The notes under the pieces were generated by a model. It did no database searches. It was not told where the DNA came from and saw only the letters and a list, made by a program, of their open reading frames with translations. From Halogeometricum borinquense DSM 11551 (GTDB taxonomy: Archaea; Halobacteriota; Halobacteria; Halobacteriales; Haloferacaceae), in contig NC_014729.1 of NCBI RefSeq assembly GCF_000172995.2, positions 750,001 through 782,000 on the forward strand: DNA of 32,000 nt, read 5' to 3'. The position numbers were made by a program, and so were the translations under genes. Positions 3,667 through 25,784 of this stretch are shown here, piece after piece. Position 1 is the stretch's first letter, and each line of letters starts with the position of its first letter.

Positions 3667-5892
3667 CTATTGGAACCCGATCCGACCGTCGCGCCGGTCG
3701 GTGAGTTGATCGCGTGCGCCGCCTTTGAACTGATCTTGCATCTGTTCGTAGTAGTCCATCAGTTCGTCCGTGATCGTCGGACGGACGGCTTCCATCGCTT
3801 TGCGGAAGTGACGCATTTCGATCTCTTTTGCGTCGTCATCCTCACGAAGCGCCTCGATAGCGGCCTCACGCGCGATGGATTCGAGGTCGGAACCGACGTA
3901 GCCCTCGGTAATCTCCGCGATCTCACGCAGGCTCACGTCGGGGGCGAGCGGACTCGACTGCGTGTGAATCCGCAGGATCTGCTCGCGGCCCTCCTCGCCG
4001 GGTTGGCCGATGAGGACGAGACGGTCGAACCGTCCCGAGCGGATGAGCGCCGGGTCGATCATGTCCGGACGGTTGGTCGCGCCGATGACCATCACGTCGC
4101 CGTTCTCTTCGAGGCCGTCCAACTCAGTTAGGAGTTGGTTGACGACGCGTTCGGAGACGTTGTTGCCCATGTCGTTGCCCCGACTGGGTGCGAGGCTGTC
4201 CAACTCGTCGAAGAAGATGATGGTCGGACTGACCTGCCGCGCCTTGCGGAACGTCTGCCGAATCGCCTTCTCCGACTCGCCGACCCACTTCGAGAGCAAC
4301 TGCGGCCCACGAACCGAGATGAAGTTGGCGTTCGTCTCGTTAGCGACAGCTTTGGCGATGAGCGTCTTCCCCGTGCCGGGCGGCCCGTACAGGAGGACGC
4401 CCTTCGGCGGTTCGATACCCATCCGCTCGAACTTATCGCGCGACGTGAGCGGCCACTCGACGCTCTCTTTGACCTTCTGTTTGGGGTCTTCGAGTCCGCC
4501 GACATCGTCCCACGACACTTTCGGCAGTTCGACGAGGACTTCCCGCATCGCCGAGGGTTCTACCTCGGTGAGCGCGCCCTCGAAGTCGCTGCGCTTGACG
4601 ATCATCCGGTCGATGAGGCTCGGCGGGATGTCCTCCTCGTCTAAGTCGATTTCGGGGAGGTACCGCCGGAGCGCCTTCATCGCGGCTTCCTTCGTCAGCG
4701 ATTCGATGTCTGCACCGACGAAGCCGTGCGTCTCGTCTGCGAGATGATCCAGCGACACGTCGTCCGAAAGCGGCATCCCGCGGGTGTGAATCTGCAGAAT
4801 CTCCTTCCGGCCGGATTCGTCGGGCACACCGATTTCGATTTCGCGGTCGAATCGACCGGGACGGCGAAGCGCGGGGTCAACCGAATCGACACGGTTGGTC
4901 GCCGCGATGACGATGACCTGCCCGCGCGTCTCCAACCCGTCCATCATCGTCAGGAGTTGGGCGACGACGCGGCGTTCGACTTCGCCGGTCACGTCCTCAC
5001 GCTTGGGCGCGATGGAGTCCAGTTCGTCGATGAAGATGATCGACGGCGACTCCTCTTTTGCGTCCTCGAATATCTCGCGGAGTTGCTGTTCGGACTCGCC
5101 GTAGTATTTCGAGATAATCTCCGGCCCGGCGATGGAGAAGAAACTCGCTGACGTCTCGTTGGCGACTGCTTTCGCCAAGAGCGTCTTCCCCGTGCCGGGC
5201 GGCCCGTGTAACAGCACCCCTTGCGGCGGTTCGATACCCAATTTCTTGAATATCTGCGGGTGCTTCATCGGGAGTTCGACCATCTCCCGGACCCGCTGGA
5301 TCTCGCCTTGCAGGCCGCCGATGTCCTCGTACGTTATGCCGCCACCCGTCTTTTCGAACCCGGAGATGGGTTCCTCTCGGAGTTCCACCTCGGTGTCTTC
5401 GGTGACGAGACAGACGCCCTCCGGATCCGTCTCGACAGCGATAAGCGGGATCGCCTGTCCGGGCGACCGCATGAATGGGTGGTTCGTCGAGGACATCACG
5501 GGAACGATGTCGCGCTCGACGACCGGACGCTTGAGTATCTGGCGTTTGACCATTCCGGCGGCGTCGGAACCGAACTGGACGCTCGCTTCCTCCGGCGGCG
5601 CGAGGACGAGTTTCTCGGCCTTCGTCGCCTCTGCCTTCCGGATGGTCACCCGTTCGCCGATTCCTACATCGGCGTTCTGACGGGTGAAGCCGTCGATACG
5701 AACCGTGTCAGTGTTCCAGTCTTGGCGGTCGGCACGCCACACCTTCGCTGCCGTCGTCTCACCACCTTCGATCTCAATGATGTCGCCCGGTGAGAGTTTG
5801 AGATGGAGCAACGTGTCCGGGTCAAGACGGGCGATACCGCGACCCGAATCGTTCGGGTACGCCTTCGCCACTTCGAGTTGCACTTCGTTCAT
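3667..5892 (-). CDS. cdc48: Cdc48/VCP-type AAA+ ATPase (two AAA domains)
   Basis: The N-terminus [25 protein letters not shown] is the CDC48 N-domain. Two Walker A motifs (GPPGTGKT) and two Walker B motifs (IIFIDELD and IIFFDELD) are present. I chose the ATG at 5892; the upstream 36 codons of the ORF are basic and not typical of the family. Confidence 0.93.
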
Positions 5893-6053
5893 GATTTGCT
5901 CGCGGGGATATGTCTGATTTCTCGGTTTCGGTGCGGGATAAGTGCTTCCCCGACTGGGGATTCTCGTGCCCGCCTCACTAAGAGTGACACTCCGCGGCAC
6001 AGTACGGCACGAAGATACAAATTCCTACCGACTCCGTCTCTCGATGCCATGGA

Positions 6054-6060
6054 ATTTTTA
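6054..6060 (+). promoter_or_regulatory. TATA box (ATTTTTA) for leaderless larC
   Basis: The box is centred 27 nt upstream of the ATG at 6084. Confidence 0.5.
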
Positions 6061-6083
6061 CTCATAACCGCCTCCTTGAAGAC

Positions 6084-7694
6084 ATGCGTACACTTGCGTT
6101 CGACGGACGAATGGGTGCTAGTGGTGACATGATTCTCGCGTCGCTTCTCGCCGCCGGTGCCGACCGGGATGCACTGGCCCCTGTCGAGAACGCTCTCGAT
6201 GTTCACTACGATGTCTCGACGGTGGTCAAAAACGGGATCTCCGCTCGTCGCGTTCGTGTCCGCTTGGATGATACTGCCGGCGGCGGCGAGGGAGCGAACG
6301 ACGGACACGACGCTGACGGGGGCCACGAGCACGCGCACGAACACGGAGATCATAGCCACGGTCACGAACACCATCACCACGCACACGACCACTCCCACGG
6401 TGAAGGCCACACGCACGACCACTCTCACGGCGCAGGCCACACGCACGACCACTCTCACGGCGCAGGCCACACGCACGACCACTCTCACGGCGCAGGCCAC
6501 ACGCACGACCACTCTCACGGCGCAGGCCACACGCACGACCACTCTCACGGCGCAGGCCACACGCACGACCACTCTCACGGCGCAGGCCACACGCACGACC
6601 ACTCTCACGGCGCAGGCCACACGCACGACCACTCTCACGGGGACCACACCGAACACCCCCACGACGATGATCATGCACACGAGACACCCGCTGAGGGACA
6701 CGGTCCGCACCGCGCGTACGCAGAAGTAGTCGAGATAGTCGAGTCGATGGGCTTGCCGAACGGCGTCGAACGGGACGCGAAAGCTATTTTCCGGATTCTC
6801 GGCGAGGCGGAAGCAGCGGTCCACGGCACCGAGTTGGATGAGACGCATTTCCACGAAGTCGGCGCAGACGACGCCATCGCGGACATCGTCGGCGCGTGTC
6901 TCCTCCTCGCTGACCTCGACGTCGAACGCGTCGTCACGTCGCCTCTTTCGACCGGCGGCGGCGAGCAGTCGATGGCGCACGGTACGTATCCAGTTCCGAC
7001 GCCCGCTGTCGTCGAAATCGCCCAGCGCGCCGACTGGTCGTTGAAAGGTGGTCCCGTCGAGGCGGAACTGTTGACGCCGACGGGCGCGGCAATTCTCGCG
7101 CACGTCGCCGAAGGCGTCGAGTCGCTCCCGACGCTCGAAATCGATGCCTCGGGGTACGGCGCGGGCGGATACGACTTTCCGGACCACCCGAACGTCCTGC
7201 GAACGCTCGTCGGCGACGGTGCGGGCCGTCTCATCCGCGACGAGATAACCGTCTTGGAGACGAACCTCGATGATGCCGCGCCGGAACTCCTCGGCGGTCT
7301 CCAATCGACGTTGAAAGACGTGGGCGCGCGCGACGTGACTATCCTTCCGGCGACGATGAAGAAGTCCCGACCCGGACATCTCGTCAAAGTCATCGTCAAA
7401 CCGGAGGACGCCGAACGCGTCGCGAACCGCCTCGCTGTCGAGACGGGAACGCTCGGCATCCGAGAACACGGTGCCGGACACCGATGGACCGCATCTAGAC
7501 GATTCGAGACAGCCGAACTCGAAATCGAGGACGAGAGACACGAGGTGGCGGTGAAAGTCGCGTCCGATGCCGAGGGAGCGGTGTACGATTACAGCGCCGA
7601 GTTCGATGAGGCTCAGGCCGTCGCCGACGAAACGGGCCTGCCAATCCGTGAGGTCATGCGACGCGCGGAGAACATCGTCGCAGGCGACGACTGA
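6084..7694 (+). CDS. larC: LarC-family nickel insertion protein (DUF111) with an expanded His-rich insert
   Basis: The N-terminus MRTLAFDGRMGASGDMILASLLAAG matches the LarC/DUF111 start motif. The remainder (HFHEVGADDAIADIVG, LSTGGG, TPTGAAIL, TMKKSRPGH) also fits the family. The His-rich tract lies at the position where LarC proteins carry one. Confidence 0.85.
   Translation: MRTLAFDGRMGASGDMILASLLAAGADRDALAPVENALDVHYDVSTVVKNGISARRVRVRLDDTAGGGEGANDGHDADGGHEHAHEHGDHSHGHEHHHHAHDHSHGEGHTHDHSHGAGHTHDHSHGAGHTHDHSHGAGHTHDHSHGAGHTHDHSHGAGHTHDHSHGAGHTHDHSHGAGHTHDHSHGDHTEHPHDDDHAHETPAEGHGPHRAYAEVVEIVESMGLPNGVERDAKAIFRILGEAEAAVHGTELDETHFHEVGADDAIADIVGACLLLADLDVERVVTSPLSTGGGEQSMAHGTYPVPTPAVVEIAQRADWSLKGGPVEAELLTPTGAAILAHVAEGVESLPTLEIDASGYGAGGYDFPDHPNVLRTLVGDGAGRLIRDEITVLETNLDDAAPELLGGLQSTLKDVGARDVTILPATMKKSRPGHLVKVIVKPEDAERVANRLAVETGTLGIREHGAGHRWTASRRFETAELEIEDERHEVAVKVASDAEGAVYDYSAEFDEAQAVADETGLPIREVMRRAENIVAGDD
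6391..6650 (+). repeat. 30-bp in-frame tandem repeat inside larC
   Basis: The unit actctcacggcgcaggccacacgcacgacc occurs 7 times without a single mismatch (6421-6630). It is flanked by one diverged copy (6391-6420) and one partial copy. It encodes (HDHSHGAGHT)n. Confidence 0.97.
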
Positions 7695-7733: not shown

Positions 7734-8507
7734 TCACTCCGTACCGTCGGTTTCGGTGTTTTCAGCGCCGTCGTTGTTCTCCGATTGGTGTTCGGCCAGT
7801 GCCTCCGAGACGGTGAGGTCGCCCGCGGCGACGCGGCGGGCGAGTCGTTCGTCGATGGTGCGGTTGTTCTCGGAGACGCGGCGGGAGTGGTCTTTGATTC
7901 GCTGAAGTTCGCCTTGGGTCGGTTCGATATCGCGTGAGTCAACAACCTCACCGTTCATCCGGGCGATGTTGACCGCGGCGAGGACATCGCCCATCCCGCG
8001 GGCGCCGGTTCCGAGATATGGCGTTGTTCCGGTCTCATCGACGAGTTCGACAGTCACGTCTTCCAGTTCGTTTACGATAGTCGAACCTTGGAGGCGTGCG
8101 CCGTCACCGATACGAACGATGGCGTCCGGACTATCTTCGACCTCCTGCCGGATGGTTTCTACCGTGTCGGCGAGCGGGACGTGAAACGCGGCGACGATGG
8201 TGTCACCCGAGAGTACGGCGATCCCCGGTCGAGTGCCGGGGTCTACGCCGATGACCGTTCGACCACCGCCGCCGCGGAGGATACTGATCGCTTCCTCGAC
8301 GGCGCGGCGGGTTTCGCCTGCTGACGCGACGACAGTTTCGACGCCCGACGGAATCTCTACCTCGTCGGTCCCAGAAACGACGACGACGTCCGCTTGGTCG
8401 GGTATCTCGGCTCCGGGTTTGACCGTGGTGAAGGCGACACCCCTGTCACGGAGGTCGCCCACGATTTCGTGGTAGAGTTCGAAGTCAGCAGTGGCGACGA
8501 CTATCAC
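7734..8507 (-). CDS. RNase-H-fold (YqgF/RuvX-like) putative nuclease, conserved archaeal protein
   Basis: Motifs VIGVDPGTRPGIAVL, VELVDETGTT and GMGDVLAAVNIA resemble the GxDxG, DERxTT and DxxAAxxI motifs of YqgF/RuvC-fold proteins. The ORF extends to 8675, but that part is basic and overlaps the radB 5' region. A GTG at 8507 starts VIVVATADF. Confidence 0.6.
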   Translation of the reverse strand: MIVVATADFELYHEIVGDLRDRGVAFTTVKPGAEIPDQADVVVVSGTDEVEIPSGVETVVASAGETRRAVEEAISILRGGGGRTVIGVDPGTRPGIAVLSGDTIVAAFHVPLADTVETIRQEVEDSPDAIVRIGDGARLQGSTIVNELEDVTVELVDETGTTPYLGTGARGMGDVLAAVNIARMNGEVVDSRDIEPTQGELQRIKDHSRRVSENNRTIDERLARRVAAGDLTVSEALAEHQSENNDGAENTETDGTE

Positions 8508-12807: not shown

Positions 12808-13821
12808 CTATGCTGATCGGAACAGTCCGAGGAGAGCACCGATACCGACAACACCGAGGACACAACCACCGATGATAGCGGTCAGCCCGGCGGAATCGCC
12901 GCCGAACACTCCGCCTGTTGACTTTCTCATACTGGCTGCGGTGTTAGTCGTCTGCTGGGTTGTCGTTTCTGTCACTTTCGTCTCCGTTGGCGTCGGGTTG
13001 GCCGGCGGCGCTTCGAGGATGACGAGCGAACCCACGGACGCTGGGTCAACCGAGGTGTCCGCCCCGGGATATATCTCCATCTGGTAGTCGCCTCGGTGAA
13101 TGAGATCTTCCAGTTCCCACTCCTCTTTCGGATCGAGACTGTACTTACTCCCATTGTCGAGGACGCTACCCGTCCTGTGATTAGTTCCAGCGTTTTCCGT
13201 ATCGAACAGGACAACGGCGCGGCCATCGTCGTCTCTGTCCCGGAGTGTCGCGACGTACTTGTAGTTCACTTCCTCGCTGCCGATGGTGATCGTGACCTTC
13301 TCCTTATCTCCGAAGGTGACGGGAATCCGAGCCGTTCTCGTCTGCGTTACCTCGACGACGGAGACCATATCAACGCGGTCAGGCGAGGGCTGCATTCCCT
13401 CGTCGGGTGTGTCGTGCTCAGTTACCGTCACGTCGGTACAGTTGCTGTCACAGGGGACGATTTTCCCTTCGGTCTCCGTGAGGCTGTCACCGTCATGAGA
13501 GACTGTCACTTCGAACGTCCCAGTTTTCGGTCCCTCGCTCATGTCGAAGTGCGCTTCGAACGTTCCGTGCTCGGTGACAGTCGTTTCCGACACTCGGAGG
13601 AAGGCCGGGCTCGTGTCACCTGTCGAGCTCATCCGGATACTCAGGGTCGTCCCTTCCGGGAGTGTCGTCTCTCCGCTGACCGTCTGTCCGGTACTCTGAT
13701 GGAGCGTCAGCGTGTCACCCTCGTGGACGATGGTGGCTGACTCTTCTGCGGCTATTACTCCTGCGGGCACGGTGGCCGCACAGAGGATACAGGCGAGGAG
13801 TGCGACACGGAATCTCGTCAT
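12808..13821 (-). CDS. Secreted or cell-surface protein with a Thr-rich linker and C-terminal TM anchor
   Basis: A signal-peptide-like N-terminus (MTRFRVALLACILCAATVPAGVIAAEE) is followed by acidic beta-rich domains and a PTPTETKVTETTTQQTTNT linker. The C-terminal hydrophobic helix has no PGF motif. The ORF extends to 13851, but the ATG at 13821 gives a normal signal peptide. Confidence 0.65.
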   Translation of the reverse strand: MTRFRVALLACILCAATVPAGVIAAEESATIVHEGDTLTLHQSTGQTVSGETTLPEGTTLSIRMSSTGDTSPAFLRVSETTVTEHGTFEAHFDMSEGPKTGTFEVTVSHDGDSLTETEGKIVPCDSNCTDVTVTEHDTPDEGMQPSPDRVDMVSVVEVTQTRTARIPVTFGDKEKVTITIGSEEVNYKYVATLRDRDDDGRAVVLFDTENAGTNHRTGSVLDNGSKYSLDPKEEWELEDLIHRGDYQMEIYPGADTSVDPASVGSLVILEAPPANPTPTETKVTETTTQQTTNTAASMRKSTGGVFGGDSAGLTAIIGGCVLGVVGIGALLGLFRSA

Positions 13822-14011
13822 CGCATCACCTCGTCGGTTCGATTCTGCCACTGTGTGATGCTGGAGGGCATCATACTCGAAGTCACAACTGTTAGGCAGT
13901 TAGTACGACCGATAGCTCAAAGCGTGCGTTGAGGTATACAGGTACTCGTTCACTGATGCTCATTTCTTGCCGGACCGAAAGGAACTCAAAGGTTGACACC
14001 TGTTCACCGGT

Positions 14012-16139: not shown

Positions 16140-16420
16140 TTCTGACTTTACTGCGGAGATAGGCCCCGTTATTTCGAGATAGGAACAGCTGCGGGCTCTC
16201 TTTTGTGTTGGTCGGAACACTATGACATCCTCCTCGCCGTTCACGGCGAGGTTTCCTCGCGCTGGGGTATCGTTTACCGACCCACGGAGGCAACTTGCGG
16301 GTTCGTATGCTCCTCGTTGGGACGGGGAGAGCGTGATGACTCCAACCATTCGTGGTTGTCCCACTTGAGGCATACAGGCCGTGCCATCGACCGTGTTACC
16401 GTCGTCTGCCGTTGACGAGA
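16140..16420 (-). ncRNA. Predicted TnpB guide RNA (omega/reRNA) scaffold region
   Basis: By analogy with characterised TnpB systems, the guide RNA overlaps the 3' end of tnpB and the IS right end. Downstream of the stop the minus strand has mutually exclusive hairpins GCGAGG-AAA-CCTCGC and CCTCGCCG-TGAA-CGGCGAGG. Boundaries are inferred, not seen. Confidence 0.3.
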
Positions 16421-17608
16421 CACAGAGTGTCTCGTTCGCCAATCAGAACTCAGAGAGTTCTGATGACGTCTCAAGAACGTCTCTGACGCCACGAGGTCAG
16501 CGTGCCCCTCGAAGCCACACGGACACGTCAGCGTATCTCTGTGGCGCGTCGTCTCCTCTGTCGAACCACAGTTGGGACACTCCTGACTCGTCCACGCCTC
16601 CGACCGAACCTCTACCGACATACCGTATTCCTTGGCGGTACACGCCACCCGGTTCACGAACGCCCTGAACGCCCAGAAATTGTGCGTTTTCGCGTTCGTC
16701 TCTACCGACCAGTGCGTTTCCAACACGTCAGTTAACGCCCCAACGTACACCGTCGAAACGCCTTCATCGTAGAGGCGTTCGATGAGGTCACGGGCGAGTG
16801 CGTCTTGGGCGTGGTCACGTCGCTTGGTACGTCGGTCGTACAGGCGTCGGATTCGGTGACTGCTGTATCGACCTTCCTCCAACAGTGATTGGAGTCGGGC
16901 GATTTCTCGTGTCGTCTCGCGGAACCTGTCGAACAGGTCACGTCCTTCGTACAATAGTTGTTGACCGGTTGTGGTTGTGCAGGCGACGAGGTTGTTCGCA
17001 CCAATATCCAGAGCGGCTTCTTCCGAAGCCAGTGGTTGTGCCAGTCGAGAATCATCGACGGTGACTGGCTGAAAGGCCCTGAACGATTGTGCTTGCTCGT
17101 CGTAGAACAACTCCAATCGACCCTGCTTCTCATACTCCGTCCAGTTCGGGTCGCCCCGAACTTCGAGCCGGAGGCGTTCGCGGTGTCCCAACCCGTACTC
17201 GTCTTTCAGGTCTTTGCCGACGAGGATTTCGAGCCGGGAGTATTCACCCCACTCGACCGAGTACGACGTGTTTCGGATGTACGTGCGGAGTTCTCGACCT
17301 TCGTCTGCGTTGCCCCAGTATCCGGGTTTTCCGTTGGCTTCGCCTTTCTTCCTAAGGCTGAAGAACGACTTCCACGCTTCGCGGTTCTTGCGCTCGATTT
17401 GCTGAACCGTGGACGCCCCGAGAACACCGCCGTAGCGACCACGATACTCGCTGATGTCCCACACGTCTCCGTCTGGGTCAGCATAGTGTTCGCGGCGCTC
17501 GTAGTTGATTTCGTTCCAGAGAGCGGCAGAAGCGTCCAACAGGCGTCGAAGCAACTCCTCGTCCTCGTCGGACAGAGGAACCACCTCGAACGTGTTGGCT
17601 CGCTTCAT
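16274..17608 (-). CDS. tnpB: TnpB (IS1341-type, RNA-guided nuclease family, OrfB)
   Basis: The 444-aa product has RuvC-I in [11 protein letters not shown], a zinc finger CPNCG...CPCG, and RuvC-III in [11 protein letters not shown]. The N-terminal [39 protein letters not shown] is typical OrfB_IS605. The RuvC-II glutamate is not obvious by eye ([11 protein letters not shown]). Confidence 0.9.
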
Positions 17609-17633
17609 CGACTACTGATTGCATCGGAACACA

Positions 17634-17640
17634 CATAAAG
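17634..17640. promoter_or_regulatory. Single A/T box (CATAAAG / CTTTATG) placed to serve both tnpB and the divergent RHH ORF
   Basis: This is the only A/T-rich element in the 53-nt gap. It lies 26-32 nt from the tnpB ATG (17608, minus strand) and 22-28 nt from the ATG at 17662 (plus strand). Confidence 0.4.
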
Positions 17641-17661
17641 ATGTGGTTTGTGTGCTACTAT

Positions 17662-17799
17662 ATGGTCGAAGTTCGCATCGAGTTCGATGACGACGAGCAG
17701 TACGAGCGACTGAAGGAACTGAAGAAACACCGTGGATTGACGTGGAAGGGGTTGCTCCTCGAAGGCGAGAAGAAAGTCAGGGAGGATACCCCGGAGTAA
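17662..17799 (+). CDS. Small ribbon-helix-helix (CopG/Arc-like) protein, 45 aa (52 aa if started at 17641)
   Basis: I translated it by hand: MVEVRIEFDDDEQYERLKELKKHRGLTWKGLLLEGEKKVREDTPE. The pattern is a beta-strand (VEVRIEF), helix 1, a G-x-T turn and helix 2, and the composition is acidic. It is too short for the supplied ORF track. Confidence 0.5.
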   Translation: MVEVRIEFDDDEQYERLKELKKHRGLTWKGLLLEGEKKVREDTPE

Positions 17800-17923
17800 G
17801 CGGCGAACGTGGGTTGTGCCGTAGAGTGTCGGATTCACGCCCGCCGTAAACGTCGGGACTCTCTCCTTGATTCAGGTAGCCGAGATATTGGCTGAGTTCG
17901 TGTCGAATGTGCTGGGCGTGCGA

Positions 17924-19325: not shown

Positions 19326-19349
19326 CCTTCACGAGGATGGAAAAACGAG

Positions 19350-19424
19350 TGGGTTGGGGCGGATTCGAACCGCCGGCCTGCTCCGTGTGAAGGAGCCGTC
19401 ATAACCTGGCTAGACCACCAACCC
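19350..19424 (-). tRNA. tRNA-Val (anticodon CAC)
   Basis: I folded the 75-nt cloverleaf by hand. The acceptor is GGGUUGG/CCAACCC. The anticodon stem is GCUCC/GGAGC with loop UUCACAC. The T-arm is GGCGG-UUCGAAU-CCGCC. A T5 run follows the 3' end. Confidence 0.9.
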
Positions 19425-20963: not shown

Positions 20964-23900
20964 CTACGACCGCCGCCACGCCAGTGTCACGACTACGAAC
21001 AGGCTCAGGATGGCCGCGAGCGGTCCAAATCCTGGAACGCCGGTTTCCGTTTCGGTCGGTGTCGCGGTTGGCGTCGCGGTCGGTGTCTGAGTTGCCGTCG
21101 GCGTCGGGCGCTCAGTCGGCGTCGGCTCGGTCACGCCAACGGTGCCTGCGGTTTGGTTCCCGACGCTGAGGTTGTACGTCCCGACTTCGTCGAACTGTAC
21201 GGTGAACCTCTCCGTCTCTGAGTCGCCAGCCCCGAGCGTCACGCGCCGCGTATCGGTCGTCGCATTGTCCACGGCGAGCGAGACGTATCCAGTCGCCGCT
21301 CGCGTCCCGTCGTTGGTCACTCCCGCTGAAACAGTGACTGTCTCTCCGGGTCGAATGCGCCGTTCACCGACGCTTGCGTTCGTCACCGCGACCCGGCCGC
21401 CGGACTCGCGGCCGACGGCGAACGTTGACAGTCCGGGCGTGTCGGCGTTGTAGACGTACGTCTCCTCTCGTTTCTCGACGAGGATTGCGTTCAATTCCGT
21501 CCACGTTCCGTCGTGATATCGGTAGAGAGCCACTTGATCCGGCGAAACGTTCCGCTCGTGCAGACGTTCCTCGTGTACGCCGAAGCGGAAGACCGCGTAG
21601 TCGATATCGCGGTCCGAGACGGAGTGGTCTACCTGCAAGTATCCGACCGTCTGCTCGTTGGGTGATGTCACGTTCGCGTCGATGGTAGCGTTCGGCGCGT
21701 CGTCGTGAACCGTAGCCTGTACCGAATACGTCTCGTTCTGTGACGCAATCGAGAGCGTGTCGAGGCTGACGTTCTTCGATTCGCTCGTTGTGTTCAGCGG
21801 AAGATCTACCAGTGACGACGGCTGTGCGGACTCCACGCGAACTGAAGATCCGTTTCGACCGGTCCGTTCGACGGAGACGTTCGCTCGCGGCGGTTCGGAG
21901 TCGTTGGCGTCGGTCTCGGATTCCGGGTCTGGTTCGATCACGACGATTTGTTCTTCGTCGCCACCGCCGCCTCCCCCACCGCCACCGCCGTTCGCGTCCG
22001 AACGTGATCCGTTCAGAGAGATCGTTGCCGATTGTCCGGACGCACCGTCGTTCCCGTTCGCGTCCGCGAGACGTGCCAGCGTCACCGTTACTGACCCATT
22101 CGATCCCACCGCGTGCGACGTCTCGTAGCTCGTCCCGCTCACCGAGAAGTCTGTCTCGTCGAGTGTCGCATTCGCCGACCCGGTCAGCGTGACGTTCACG
22201 TCGTTCAGCGTCTCCGAAGCGTCGAAGGCGATATCGACCGACGAGTCCGATCCCGCGGAGACGGAGAAATTCGAGACCGTCGGCGGGGTGTCGAGGGTGA
22301 GCGTTCCGGTCTGGGCTGACCGTTTGTTTCCAACGGTGTCCGTCGTCGTGACCGGGACCGACCGGTCGCCGTCGGCCGCAGTCGCGTCGAAGTCTACGGT
22401 GAGTGTCGCCGTGTAGGTCCCGTCGGAGTCGCCGTCAGCAATCGAGACCGCACTTCCGGAACCGAATGCACTCCCATCGACCGTCACCGACCCGATGCCT
22501 GCAGCGTCACTCACCGTCGCTGAGATATCTATCTGGTCGCCCGGCGCGACGACGCCGTCGCCGTCTGTCGCGTCAGTGAACGTCAGGCCGGTGACCGACG
22601 GCCCGGTCGTATCGAGCGTCAGCGACCCCGTCGTTCCGCTTCCGACCGTCCCCCGGTCGTCACTAGCTTGAATGGGTGCCGAGACGCTCCCGTCTGCGGA
22701 CGCGTTCGACTCGTCCACTGCGACCGTCGCGTTCCATGTGCCATCGTCATCACCGTCCGTCAACGTGACCGTTCCAGCTCCGATGGCCGAGAGGTCGGTC
22801 GTTACTGTCGCCACGCCGTTCGCGTCGGTCGCTGTCGCCTCCACAGTGACGTTCTCACCATCCGTGAGGACGCCGTCACCCGTCTCGTCCGTAAGCGTCG
22901 GACTCGATACGGTCGGACCAGTCGTGTCGAGCGTTAGCGATCCCGTCGTCCCGCTTCGGACGTTCCCCGCGCCGTCCGTCACATCGACGGCCACGCTGTA
23001 GTCGCCGTCGGGGTCCGCGTTCGCACCGTTTACGGTGACCGTCTTCGACCAATCGCCGCCGGTATCGGTGAGGGTGACGACGCCAGCACCGAACGCCGAG
23101 AGGTCGGCCGTCACCGACTGCACACCCGCAGTGCTATCCGTCGCTGTCGCGGACACGGTCACAGATTCGCCGTCAGCGACGATGCTGTCTCCGTCGGCGT
23201 CGTCTGTGACGCCCACTGAGGAGAGTGTTGGTTTCGCCGTGTCGAGGGTCAGCGTCTCGGTCGTAACGACGCTTGTCTGACCGGCCTCGTCGCTGACAGT
23301 AACGGACCCACCGTGCGAGCCGTCGGGATCCGCATTCGCGGCGTCAACGGAGACAGTCACATCCCACGTTCCGTCCGAGTCGCCGTCGGCCAAGGTGACG
23401 GTTCCGGCGCCGAACGCCGAGAGGTCGGCTTCGACGGTGCGAACCTCGCTTCCGGTTCCGTCGGGTGTGACGGAGACAGTGAGATCCTCGCCGCCCGCCA
23501 CGTAGCTATCAGCATCACTGTCGCTCAGTGAGAGCCCTGATGTTGATGGTGTGACAGTGTCGAGGGTGAGCGTTCCGACCGTCGTCTGATTTGTCTTCCC
23601 TTGACTGTCGGCGGCCTCGACAGAAACGGAGTGCTCTCCGTCCGCAACACCCGACGCGTCCACGACGAACGTACCGTTGTACACGTCCGAACTCCCGACT
23701 TGCGAGAGACTGACTGCACTGCCGCCGCCGAGTTCGGTTGCGTCCGCAGTGACAGTATCAACTGTCGTCGCGTCGGTCACGGTCAGTTCGACTGTCACCG
23801 TCTCTTCGTCCGCGACGACACCGTCACCGTCGGTGCCTGTGAGACTCCCGGCCGAAAGCGTCGGCGGGTTCACGTCCTGCGTCAACTCGTTCGTCGTCGC

Positions 23901-25784
23901 CGAGTTGGCGTTCCCGAGGTCGTCCGTCGCTTCGACGGTGAGACTGTAGTTGCCGTCGCCCGCGGCGTTGGTCCCGTTAACCGTGAACGACGTCTCGTAG
24001 GTGTCGCCGCCGACGTTCGAGAGCGTCTCGGTTCCGACGCCGAAATCTGATGCGTCCGTCGTCACTGCGGTGATTCCAGTCGTGTCCGTCACCGTCGCGG
24101 AGACAACGACTGTGTCGCCGTCGCGGACGACGCTCATGCCGCCGCTCCCGTTTCTGAGCGTCAGCGATGAGAGACTTGGACCGCTCGTATCAACGCTGAG
24201 CGTCCCTGTCTCTGTCGAGGCGGTGTTTCCCTCGTCGTCTGTCGCCGTCACCGAGGCGAGTTGGTCTCCCTCGGTCGGCGACTGACCGACCGCCGTCGTC
24301 AGGTTCCACGTGGACCCATCGGACGAGGTGAGTGAGACGGAACTCCCCAGATCGAACGCCGAGAGATCGGCCGTGACCGACTGCACACCGCTCGTGTCGT
24401 CGGACACTGTCGCTTCGACGGTTATCTCGTCTCCGTCGGTCACGTTCCCGTCGGCGTCTCCGTCAGTGAGTGAGAGAGGACTAATATCCGGCCCGGTCGT
24501 ATCCACAACGACTGTTTCGGATTCACTGCTTGCACCGTCTTTTCCGGTTCCGTCCGCGGCTTCATCGAGCGTGAACGTGTACGTCCCGTCGGTCGGCGCG
24601 TTGTACGTCGCCTCGTACGTGTACGGGGCCGACCCATCGGCCGTCGAGAACGCTGCCTCCGTAACTGTCGTCGAATCCGCTCCCGAGACGCTCACCGTGA
24701 TGTTCCCGAGCGTTTCGTCGCTGTCGAACGAGAGGCCGACCGACTGCCCCGAGGAGTTATCGACCGCAAACGATGTGATATTAGGATCCGTGTTCAGTGT
24801 CAGCGTCTCGACGGTCGTCTGATTCACGTTTCCGGCCGCGTCGCGTACGCGGACAGTTACCGGGTAGTCACCGTCGGTCGTCCCTCCTTCCGAGACGGTT
24901 ATCGTGGCGTTGTACACGCTTGATTCCGTTTCGTTCGTCAGCGATTCCGACGTACCTGCACCGAAATCCGAGAGGTCGGCCGTCACTGACTCTATCGCCG
25001 TCGTCGCGTCCGCCACATCTACCTCAACAGTCACTGTCTCGCCAGCATCGACGGTCCCGTCGTCGCCTGCTTCGGAGAGCGTCGTTGACGAGTACGTGGG
25101 CGCATTCGTGTCGAGACGAAGTGACGGCGAGTCGGTCCGATTGGTGTTACTCTGATTGTCGGCGGCGACGATGGTAACGTTCGTCTCCCCGTCAGCGGGA
25201 ACGCTTCCGCCGACGGTGAACGTCGCCGCGTAGGTGTCACCGTTCGTGAGAGAGAGCGAAACGGTTCCAGCACCGAAGTCAGACGCGTCGGCTTCGACAG
25301 ACTGCACGCTCGCTGTCGCGTCTACGACGTCGGCCCTGACGCGGACGGTGTCGTCCGAGGCGACGATTCCGTCTCCGTCCGAATCGTCCAGCAACTGCAC
25401 GTTCGTCACCGACGGTTCGGTGGTGTCTACGTACGCGCTATCGTTCAGTGAACTCTCTTTGACGAACTCGCCGGTGTAGTAGCCGTCACGACTCACGTTC
25501 GTCGTCGTCTCGTAGTGATACCCGCCGGAGATATTGGTTTCAGTGAACGTGTCGGCACCCAACACCTGATCGGAATCACCGTTTCGGTAGAGTAAAATAT
25601 CGAAGTCAGACAGTTGCTGTGTCGAGTCGAACGAGACGGTCAAGTTCTGCCCCTCAGGGTTCGAGATAGTGAAGTTTGATTGCTCCCCGCTGGCCGCCTC
25701 TGCGACTCCCGGACCGACTGCCGCCGCGGCCGCCAAAATCATGACTGCAACTGTGACGAGAGTAACGGAGACCCCTCGCGTCAC
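20964..25784 (-). CDS. Giant (1606 aa) repeat-built cell-surface glycoprotein/adhesin with PGF-pre-PGF, CARDB-like and PGF-CTERM domains
   Basis: It has a signal peptide (MTRGVSVTLVTVAVMILAAAAAVGPGVAEA). It contains nine modules of about 105 aa starting DTxxP and three modules of a second type. A Gly9 run follows. The PGF-pre-PGF-like block is VGYLQVDH...YRYHDGTWTEL...TPGLSTFAVG. The C-terminus has a TPT-rich linker and GVPGFGPLAAILSLFVVVTLAWRRS. NxS/T sequons are numerous. Confidence 0.9.
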   Translation of the reverse strand: MTRGVSVTLVTVAVMILAAAAAVGPGVAEAASGEQSNFTISNPEGQNLTVSFDSTQQLSDFDILLYRNGDSDQVLGADTFTETNISGGYHYETTTNVSRDGYYTGEFVKESSLNDSAYVDTTEPSVTNVQLLDDSDGDGIVASDDTVRVRADVVDATASVQSVEADASDFGAGTVSLSLTNGDTYAATFTVGGSVPADGETNVTIVAADNQSNTNRTDSPSLRLDTNAPTYSSTTLSEAGDDGTVDAGETVTVEVDVADATTAIESVTADLSDFGAGTSESLTNETESSVYNATITVSEGGTTDGDYPVTVRVRDAAGNVNQTTVETLTLNTDPNITSFAVDNSSGQSVGLSFDSDETLGNITVSVSGADSTTVTEAAFSTADGSAPYTYEATYNAPTDGTYTFTLDEAADGTGKDGASSESETVVVDTTGPDISPLSLTDGDADGNVTDGDEITVEATVSDDTSGVQSVTADLSAFDLGSSVSLTSSDGSTWNLTTAVGQSPTEGDQLASVTATDDEGNTASTETGTLSVDTSGPSLSSLTLRNGSGGMSVVRDGDTVVVSATVTDTTGITAVTTDASDFGVGTETLSNVGGDTYETSFTVNGTNAAGDGNYSLTVEATDDLGNANSATTNELTQDVNPPTLSAGSLTGTDGDGVVADEETVTVELTVTDATTVDTVTADATELGGGSAVSLSQVGSSDVYNGTFVVDASGVADGEHSVSVEAADSQGKTNQTTVGTLTLDTVTPSTSGLSLSDSDADSYVAGGEDLTVSVTPDGTGSEVRTVEADLSAFGAGTVTLADGDSDGTWDVTVSVDAANADPDGSHGGSVTVSDEAGQTSVVTTETLTLDTAKPTLSSVGVTDDADGDSIVADGESVTVSATATDSTAGVQSVTADLSAFGAGVVTLTDTGGDWSKTVTVNGANADPDGDYSVAVDVTDGAGNVRSGTTGSLTLDTTGPTVSSPTLTDETGDGVLTDGENVTVEATATDANGVATVTTDLSAIGAGTVTLTDGDDDGTWNATVAVDESNASADGSVSAPIQASDDRGTVGSGTTGSLTLDTTGPSVTGLTFTDATDGDGVVAPGDQIDISATVSDAAGIGSVTVDGSAFGSGSAVSIADGDSDGTYTATLTVDFDATAADGDRSVPVTTTDTVGNKRSAQTGTLTLDTPPTVSNFSVSAGSDSSVDIAFDASETLNDVNVTLTGSANATLDETDFSVSGTSYETSHAVGSNGSVTVTLARLADANGNDGASGQSATISLNGSRSDANGGGGGGGGGGDEEQIVVIEPDPESETDANDSEPPRANVSVERTGRNGSSVRVESAQPSSLVDLPLNTTSESKNVSLDTLSIASQNETYSVQATVHDDAPNATIDANVTSPNEQTVGYLQVDHSVSDRDIDYAVFRFGVHEERLHERNVSPDQVALYRYHDGTWTELNAILVEKREETYVYNADTPGLSTFAVGRESGGRVAVTNASVGERRIRPGETVTVSAGVTNDGTRAATGYVSLAVDNATTDTRRVTLGAGDSETERFTVQFDEVGTYNLSVGNQTAGTVGVTEPTPTERPTPTATQTPTATPTATPTETETGVPGFGPLAAILSLFVVVTLAWRRS
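22301..25427 (-). repeat. Array of diverged modules of about 315 bp (Ig-like repeats) within the giant surface protein gene
   Basis: The consensus DT(T/S)GP(S/T)xSxxxLTDxxGDGxVxxGExVTVxAxVxDxxxGVxSVTADLSAFGAGxVTL...GxxxTGxLTL recurs nine times. Coordinates were derived from amino-acid positions and are approximate. Confidence 0.8.

Follow-up and report, generated by a model that had tools for sequence, protein, structure and literature searches.

A perfect tandem repeat inside the coding sequence of a metal-handling enzyme raises two questions: whether its copy number differs between strains, and what such a difference would mean for the protein. We investigated this for a stretch of 32,000 nt from the archaeon Halogeometricum borinquense DSM 11551 (contig NC_014729.1, positions 750,001 to 782,000; this whole stretch is called the window below), in which the gene larC carries the 30-bp unit CACGACCACTCTCACGGCGCAGGCCACACG seven times. 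All seven copies are exact, they occupy positions 6414-6623 of the window, and each is read in the LarC frame as HDHSHGAGHT. We consider it probable that this array is an in-frame 30-bp coding variable-number tandem repeat (VNTR) in a disordered loop of the LarC1 region, which went from one to seven units in the lineage of the type strain and thereby likely added Ni(II) sites. The array and its flanking copies are composed as follows:

6384-6413, + strand: upstream diverged unit HDHSHGEGHT, three mismatches to the core unit, from repeat comparison
6414-6623, + strand: core array of seven identical 30-bp units (HDHSHGAGHT), from direct repeat comparison and Tandem Repeats Finder (TRF)
6624-6653, + strand: downstream truncated unit HDHSHGDHTE, identical to the core unit over its first 17 nt (6624-6640) and divergent thereafter

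The period of 30 nt runs without any mismatch from 6404 to 6640, and TRF reported the repeat at 6377-6640 with 8.8 copies, 97% matches, no indels and a score of 493; it is the sole sizeable tandem repeat within the window. A first-pass annotation made from the letters alone had described seven mismatch-free 30-bp repeats with diverged flanking copies, which the unit comparison and TRF both confirm, and its placement of the array at 6391-6650 was about right. Because the tract is extremely CAC-rich, we chose a null model that preserves composition and shuffled the codons of the surrounding His-rich insert, 2000 times for the longest exact periodic run and 300 times for the TRF score. The longest exact run was observed to be 207, compared to a mean of 12.8 and a maximum of 25 in the shuffles, and against the observed TRF score of 493 the best shuffled score was at most 120. 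The repeat is far beyond what would be expected from composition alone, and it has the properties of a coding VNTR, namely head-to-tail copies of high identity and a frame-preserving unit length divisible by 3. On/off phase variation was rejected for this reason: a 30-nt unit causes no frameshift, so that the array is not an on/off switch. We also rejected the open reading frames (ORFs) that cross the array in other frames, 6157-6729 (+), 6226-6687 (-) and 5889-7541 (-), as shadow ORFs of a high-GC gene in a genome of 61% GC, since homology to LarC continues in the +1 frame on either side of the array; their products across the array would be the implausible (TTTLTAQATR)n, (GRACGLRRES)n or (RVVVRVACAV)n. 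The antisense ORF of 550 aa at 5889-7541 (-) appears 'conserved' in 59 loci and passes the GC3 filter, yet is a shadow ORF, which shows that ORF lists from high-GC genomes can mislead.

For the comparison between strains we used a cluster of the LarC protein at 90% identity, which has three members, all from H. borinquense, with 536, 476 and 472 aa. The DNA of these three alleles, which make up our allele sample, was compared in a layout that keeps the 30-nt register, where GE and GA denote the HDHSHGEGHT and HDHSHGAGHT units:

536 aa, type strain (window): GE unit, seven GA units, truncated unit
476 aa, GCA_004150395: GE unit, one GA unit, truncated unit
472 aa, GCA_010692885 (wsp4), GCA_040679015 and SRR26441317: 7-aa unit, GE-type unit, truncated unit; no GA unit

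The variation in copy number between strains that had been predicted from the single sequence is found here as seven, one and zero GA units, and counting the units across LarC orthologues, which had been proposed as a check, gives a number that is not invariant between H. borinquense strains. As read from the assembled alleles, conspecific strains differ by whole units, as a VNTR requires. The upstream GE unit (6384-6413) occurs in GCA_004150395 as well, and the wsp4 lineage has a 27-nt derivative of it. Outside the six extra units larC differs from GCA_004150395 at 8 of 1431 nt and from wsp4 at 38 of 1419 nt, and the identity of the flanks is 98.9-99.7% and about 95-98%, respectively. Since about three units are present in the sister strain as well as in the more distant lineage, parsimony suggests that six units were gained in the type-strain lineage, where a three-unit ancestral tract would have had its middle unit multiplied from one copy to seven. 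These six units add 60 residues, 24 of them His, and leave the folded catalytic parts untouched; the alleles carry 28 His in the 79-aa insert, 25 in the shortest allele and 52 in the type strain.

Two of the eight larC differences to GCA_004150395 are the same CAC-to-CAT change in the first codon of two adjacent units (larC nt 333 and 363, that is, window position 6416 and the corresponding unit boundary). This pair suggests that concerted change, by slippage cycles or conversion, has occurred in the lineage of GCA_004150395 too. At the divergence observed between these strains (8/1431 nt) the 180 extra bases are expected to carry about 0.5-1 substitution, so that perfectly identical units could date from any time after the strains separated. 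Of the first-pass annotation's statement that perfect identity implies a very recent event, the identity therefore stands and the dating does not. The direction of the change, a gain in the type strain, rests on parsimony and not on the identity of the units.

Next we consider the gene that hosts the array and the position of the array within the protein. The features of larC are:

6084-7694, + strand: larC coding sequence, 536 aa, nickel-pincer cofactor cyclometallase with fused LarC1 and LarC2, from Pfam, NCBIfam and an exact protein match
6084-6266, + strand: N-terminal folded LarC1 segment before the insert, aa 1-61, from an AlphaFold confidence (predicted local distance difference test, pLDDT) of 86-98 with strands and helices in residues 2-61
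6267-6692, + strand: His/Asp/Gly-rich insert, aa 62-203 (142 aa, 52 His), predicted to be an unstructured loop from composition and AlphaFold
6693-7208, + strand: conserved LarC1 core, aa 204-375, with a putative Ni-binding His patch and E243, from alignment to 12bi_D
7245-7613, + strand: LarC2 domain, aa 388-510, CTP-binding and hexamer core, from NF052512 and Foldseek to 6bwo

The assignment to LarC, already made in the first-pass annotation, was right, as the profiles of PF01969 Ni_insertion (E=1.9e-122, 409.4 bits, cut-off 22.1), TIGR00299 LarC1 (197 bits, cut-off 90) and NF052512 LarC2 (105.7 bits, cut-off 50, residues 388-510) all exceed their cut-offs in one polypeptide. The protein is identical to ADQ66411.1/WP_013440499.1, the LarC of Halogeometricum borinquense ATCC 700274, encoded on a chromosome of 2.82 Mb. 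A sequence search of the PDB retrieved full-length LarC of Moorella thermoacetica (Mt; 12bi), with which residues 204-307 align without gaps, and residues 3-34 align with residues 21-52 of chain 12bi_D. With the 18-residue tag of 12bi_D subtracted to obtain the Mt numbering, H70 corresponds to H209 here, H72 to A211, H108 to H247, H116 to H255, H118 to H257, H160 to H299 and E104 to E243. Among 122 haloarchaeal LarCs, H247, H257, H299 and E243 are invariant and H255 is nearly so. In the cryo-EM study of Moorella LarC from 2026 these His residues form a surface patch that is taken as the nickel site; H72 is dispensable, unlike the essential H108, H118 and H160, and nickel density is absent (PMC13510736). 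Foldseek matched the AlphaFold model of the C-terminal domain to the LarC2 structures 6bwo and 6bwq with a TM-score, normalised to the target, of 0.81-0.86 (0.86 for 6bwo). Since the patch His and E243 are conserved and the LarC2 fold matches, the catalytic apparatus is intact as judged from the sequence.

The array lies in the segment that separates the two folded parts of LarC1. Of the 142 residues of this insert 52 are His (49 CAC and 3 CAT codons, 37%), 26 Gly, 19 Asp, 14 Ala, 11 Thr and 10 Ser; the six amino acids make up 93%, in line with the earlier estimate of an insert of about 130 aa consisting nearly only of these. The Pfam model has no positions for the insert, and the main match resumes at residue 203 with profile position 63. 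AlphaFold2, run with an alignment of 122 sequences, gave block means of pLDDT of 40-49 over residues 71-200, compared to 85-98 in the remaining protein, and by DSSP the stretch between residues 67 and 201 of the model is free of secondary structure, so that the loop is predicted to be disordered and flexible. The loop ends five residues N-terminal to the patch histidine H209 (Mt H70). In total the protein contains 65 His, at least 57 of them in the LarC1 region (52 in the insert plus H209, H247, H255, H257 and H299). As in HypB, a nickel-delivery protein here bears a dense tract of His, and the DNA of the loop is cryptically simple, the His codon CAC recurring roughly every 6 nt.

We then asked how this loop behaves in other haloarchaea. 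The 122 LarC proteins closest to this one are all haloarchaeal, and loops were measured in 92 of them, with slightly narrower boundaries that give 139 aa for the type strain. Their length ranges from 26 to 139 aa with a median of 70 and their His count from 8 to 52 with a median of 20, and the H. borinquense allele of the window is the maximum for both. Several of these loops show strong periodicity at the protein level with unrelated units. The inserts of Halogeometricum species are short and non-homologous. A TRF survey of the N-terminal regions of 68 larC genes, one genome per species, gave matches in 54 of them; all periods within the His region are multiples of 3, and after the score of 493 in the window the next best scores are 234, 219 and 203. 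Independent near-perfect in-frame arrays were observed in the same loop in at least three other haloarchaeal lineages (positions are those of the respective locus):

Salinirarus marinus larC (locus L085, 1214-1421): 27 bp, 7.7 copies, 98% matches, TRF score 402
JGI metagenome 3300022777 larC (locus L086, 1211-1330): 27 bp, 4.4 copies, 100% matches
JGI metagenome 3300026961/ERZ508597 larC (locus L087, 1203-1372): 33 bp, 5.2 copies, 97% matches

Because these lineages hold arrays of other unit length and sequence at the same site, we regard the loop as a recurrent slippage hot spot of the whole class, with H. borinquense PR3 as its most extreme example to date. A loop that evolves by slippage across the Halobacteria also accounts for the widely varying lengths of LarC in this class. 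As a separate observation, one LarC of a metagenomic haloarchaeon (558 aa) carries a C-terminal fusion to DUF952 (PF06108).

How could the expansion have come about, and what would it do? The repetition of CAC about every 6 nt would favour replication slippage or unequal recombination between neighbouring units, and by such events the middle unit may have been amplified from one copy to seven within the type-strain lineage, with the catalytic fold left alone. Since the loop ends just before H209 of the putative Ni patch, the extra HxHxH units would most likely provide further low-affinity sites at which Ni(II) is captured or buffered and from which the catalytic site is fed, by analogy to HypB, whose N-terminal His tract ('nickelin') has been proposed as a nickel store or buffer and binds 9 Ni per monomer with 24 His in Bradyrhizobium japonicum and 4 with 17 His in Rhizobium leguminosarum (PMC7055735). 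By these ratios the 24 extra His might correspond to a gain of about 6-9 Ni sites per monomer. LarC of Haloferax volcanii co-purifies on Ni-NTA via its native His-rich domain (10.1101/2025.07.03.662939). From these parallels we infer that the number of units would be linked to metal-binding capacity. For core catalysis the tract may be dispensable, as suggested by Moorella LarC, which is active with just 8 His in LarC1 (PMC13510736), and by the haloarchaeal loops of 26 aa.

The alleles could in principle be products of assembly, either because the seven-unit count of the type strain is an error or because the low counts elsewhere are. Short-read assemblers often collapse perfect arrays that exceed the read length, the exact 536-aa product occurs in one record only (the contig index contained no second one), and the assembly of strain wsp4 (CP048739) was made with CLC from Illumina NextSeq reads, using DSM 11551 as reference (PMC7490331), so that copy numbers in short-read assemblies are in principle lower bounds and such assemblies will tend to mis-size larC. 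Still, we consider an artefact highly improbable. For the type strain there is a finished genome, built on 9.7x coverage by Sanger and 21.8x by 454 sequencing together with 2,826 finishing reads (PMC3035229), and the tract of about 240 bp fits inside, and can be spanned by, a single Sanger read. For GCA_004150395 a contig of 2.81 Mb suggests long reads. Moreover, the alleles differ in the sequence and type of their units (CAT variants, absence of the GA unit, a 7-aa first unit), which collapse cannot have produced, and the 472-aa allele is the same in three independent assemblies, including a Logan contig (k=31) that continues unbroken through the site. In de Bruijn assembly the collapse of a perfect array would normally leave such a contig interrupted. 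A related concern is that the six units arose during cultivation of strain PR3 after its isolation and are lacking in the natural population. Zero divergence among the seven units would fit this, as would the single record of the 536-aa product and the JGI metagenomes, in which an exact scan for two adjacent GA units gave no match. However, zero divergence is equally expected of a natural expansion at this strain divergence, and environmental contigs of other lineages hold comparable arrays, which indicates that such alleles occur in nature; an origin in the laboratory is in our view improbable.

The main rival concerns function and not the repeat itself: the loop may need only to be rich in His and Asp and flexible, its length drifting neutrally by random slippage, so that the seven-copy allele would be without effect on nickel economy, fitness or the activity of LarC. 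This is possible, although we hold it to be the less plausible account. It draws on the range of 26-139 aa in loop length with unrelated sequences even in close relatives, among them the Halogeometricum species with their short, non-homologous inserts, on the 8 His that suffice for Moorella LarC, and on the viability of a larC deletion in Hfx. volcanii (10.1101/2025.07.03.662939). On the other hand, at least 8 His are kept at this site in all 92 measured homologues, which argues that composition is under selection, and the independent expansions are all built of HxH-type units; neither observation proves that length matters. Besides this deletion, several points weigh against the reading of the array as a strain-variable repeat that adds nickel sites. 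Loop length varies five-fold among species with no consequence known, and the function of haloarchaeal LarC is itself unproven according to Pfeiffer and Dyall-Smith 2021 (PMC8305020). An anchor common to all three alleles had no match in the JGI metagenomes, and copy numbers from short reads, such as that of wsp4, may be collapsed. Finally, the LarC with the 33-bp array is found as an identical 469-aa product on 5 contigs from separate samples, which suggests that these arrays are not hypermutable on short time scales. Taken together, we still favour an in-frame coding VNTR, expanded in the type-strain lineage and likely adding Ni(II) sites. A stronger version, in which the loop is a tunable nickel 'antenna' or store, the independent expansions across the Halobacteria stem from selection for better nickel capture in hypersaline brines, and the number of units adjusts nickel buffering in the manner of a contingency locus, with LarC as a reservoir like Hpn or HypB and possibly a link to its conserved divergent neighbour Cdc48, appears unlikely.

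We also analyzed the genomic context of larC for its possible partners. Profile searches of the ORFs revealed no larA, larB or larE domain in the window, and clustering of the flanking ORFs found no lar partner within +/-10 kb of larC at 80 haloarchaeal loci, so that the absence of these genes noted in the first-pass annotation extends well beyond this locus. A scan of the flanks for PP-loop motifs in search of a lar partner yielded a NadE-like protein only. The recurrent flank clusters at the 80 loci are cdc48, an ORF without assigned function, radB, a CBS protein, pst/phoU, permeases, UspA and antisense shadow ORFs, and the order cdc48 - larC - this ORF - radB is conserved, its members being present at 54, 74, 53 and 44 loci, respectively. 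In Hfx. volcanii larC (HVO_2381) stands alone beside cdc48, larB (HVO_0197) and larE (HVO_0190) lie elsewhere, and no larA is reported (PMC8305020); in the literature we found nothing on LarA in haloarchaea. The missing lar neighbours and the unassigned client enzyme are a published general feature of haloarchaeal larC and no peculiarity of this locus. The gene next to larC is the following:

3667-6000, - strand: cdc48-family AAA ATPase, divergent from larC, TIGR01243 CDC48 with 1023.6 bits

Its true start is probably near 5892, since the annotation of the sister strains (loci L001 and L002) gives 741 aa. The divergent cdc48-larC pair, with about 190 bp in between, occurs in 54 of 74 haloarchaeal larC loci, and the pairing has been mentioned before (PMC8305020).

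On the other side, convergent with larC and beside radB, lies an acidic ORF of 257 aa at 7734-8507 (-), the one without assigned function, whose longest form reaches 8675 and which is conserved in 53 haloarchaeal loci. As a hidden lar component it was rejected, having no Pfam, NCBIfam or PDB match (best DUF460, E=0.06); a 'GVDPG' motif in the region of the DUF460 match may point to an RNase H-like fold. Besides the genes named so far, the window codes for pstCAB-phoU, radB, a CBS protein, a subtilase, an ArsR-type regulator, surface proteins, TnpB, a glycosyltransferase, a PduO-type adenosyltransferase and glycine-cleavage genes. TnpB is of the IS200/IS605 family (16274-17608, -, with OrfB_IS605 and Cas12f1-like TNB domains) and lies in a segment of 1.65 kb (16221-17876) that is present in the window and in GCA_004150395. 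The loci of the wsp4 lineage (L002-L004) lack this segment, which makes it an insertion or deletion specific to strains. Two of the surface proteins stand out: one of 1606 aa at 20964-25784 (-), very acidic (3% Lys+Arg) and with PGF-pre-PGF and PGF-CTERM sorting domains, is probably a large surface protein processed by ArtA, and one of 347 aa at 12808-13851 (-) carries DUF7827 and the haloarchaeal surface domain BGTF and is related to part of the S-layer glycoprotein. In the window Rfam and ARAGORN match only a tRNA-Val (anticodon CAC) at 19349-19424 (-).

What the locus presents is a real but fairly ordinary in-frame polymorphism of repeat length in a loop already known to vary. If copy number alters nickel capacity, the three natural H. 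borinquense alleles are a ready allelic series for the role of the His-rich region, which the LarC structure paper of 2026, in which nickel density was not seen, left open; otherwise this is the expected kind of variation in a known protein. As a practical matter, native LarC is a known Ni-NTA contaminant in purifications from haloarchaea, and the allele with 52 His should be an especially strong one.

In comparison with known systems, LarC with its His-rich region is familiar, as are His-rich nickel tracts and coding VNTRs, while in the literature we found no description of a tandem-repeat architecture of the LarC loop, of its polymorphism between strains or of its recurrence across the Halobacteria. 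HypB shares the dense His tract on a nickel-delivery protein, but it is an unrelated GTPase whose tract is a terminal tail and not an internal loop as in LarC; for tracts of the HypB type we found neither a tandem DNA repeat nor strain variation in copy number documented in the literature. His-rich tails that bind nickel as low-complexity sequence are also present in UreE, SlyD and CooJ. Hpn and Hpn-like of Helicobacter pylori resemble the loop as low-complexity, His-rich nickel-binding sequences and differ from it as stand-alone storage proteins, and the strain differences in the low-complexity run of Hpn-like (PMC8704837) concern a Gln run and not units that contain His. Prokaryotic coding VNTRs match the array in their head-to-tail identical units, a length that is a multiple of 3, strain variation by whole units and a disordered or tolerant segment. 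Their classic examples are surface or antigenic proteins, whereas the host here is a cytoplasmic enzyme of cofactor maturation and the units are metal-binding motifs. Closest of all are the LarCs of Lactiplantibacillus plantarum and Moorella thermoacetica (12bi), which belong to the same family and share the domain, the conserved His patch and the residues of the acidic pocket, and in which a variable His-rich segment likewise lies beside the patch. H. borinquense differs from them in having at least 57 His in LarC1, compared to 21 in L. plantarum and 8 in Moorella, and in that much of this excess comes from a perfect 30-bp array whose number of units varies between strains.

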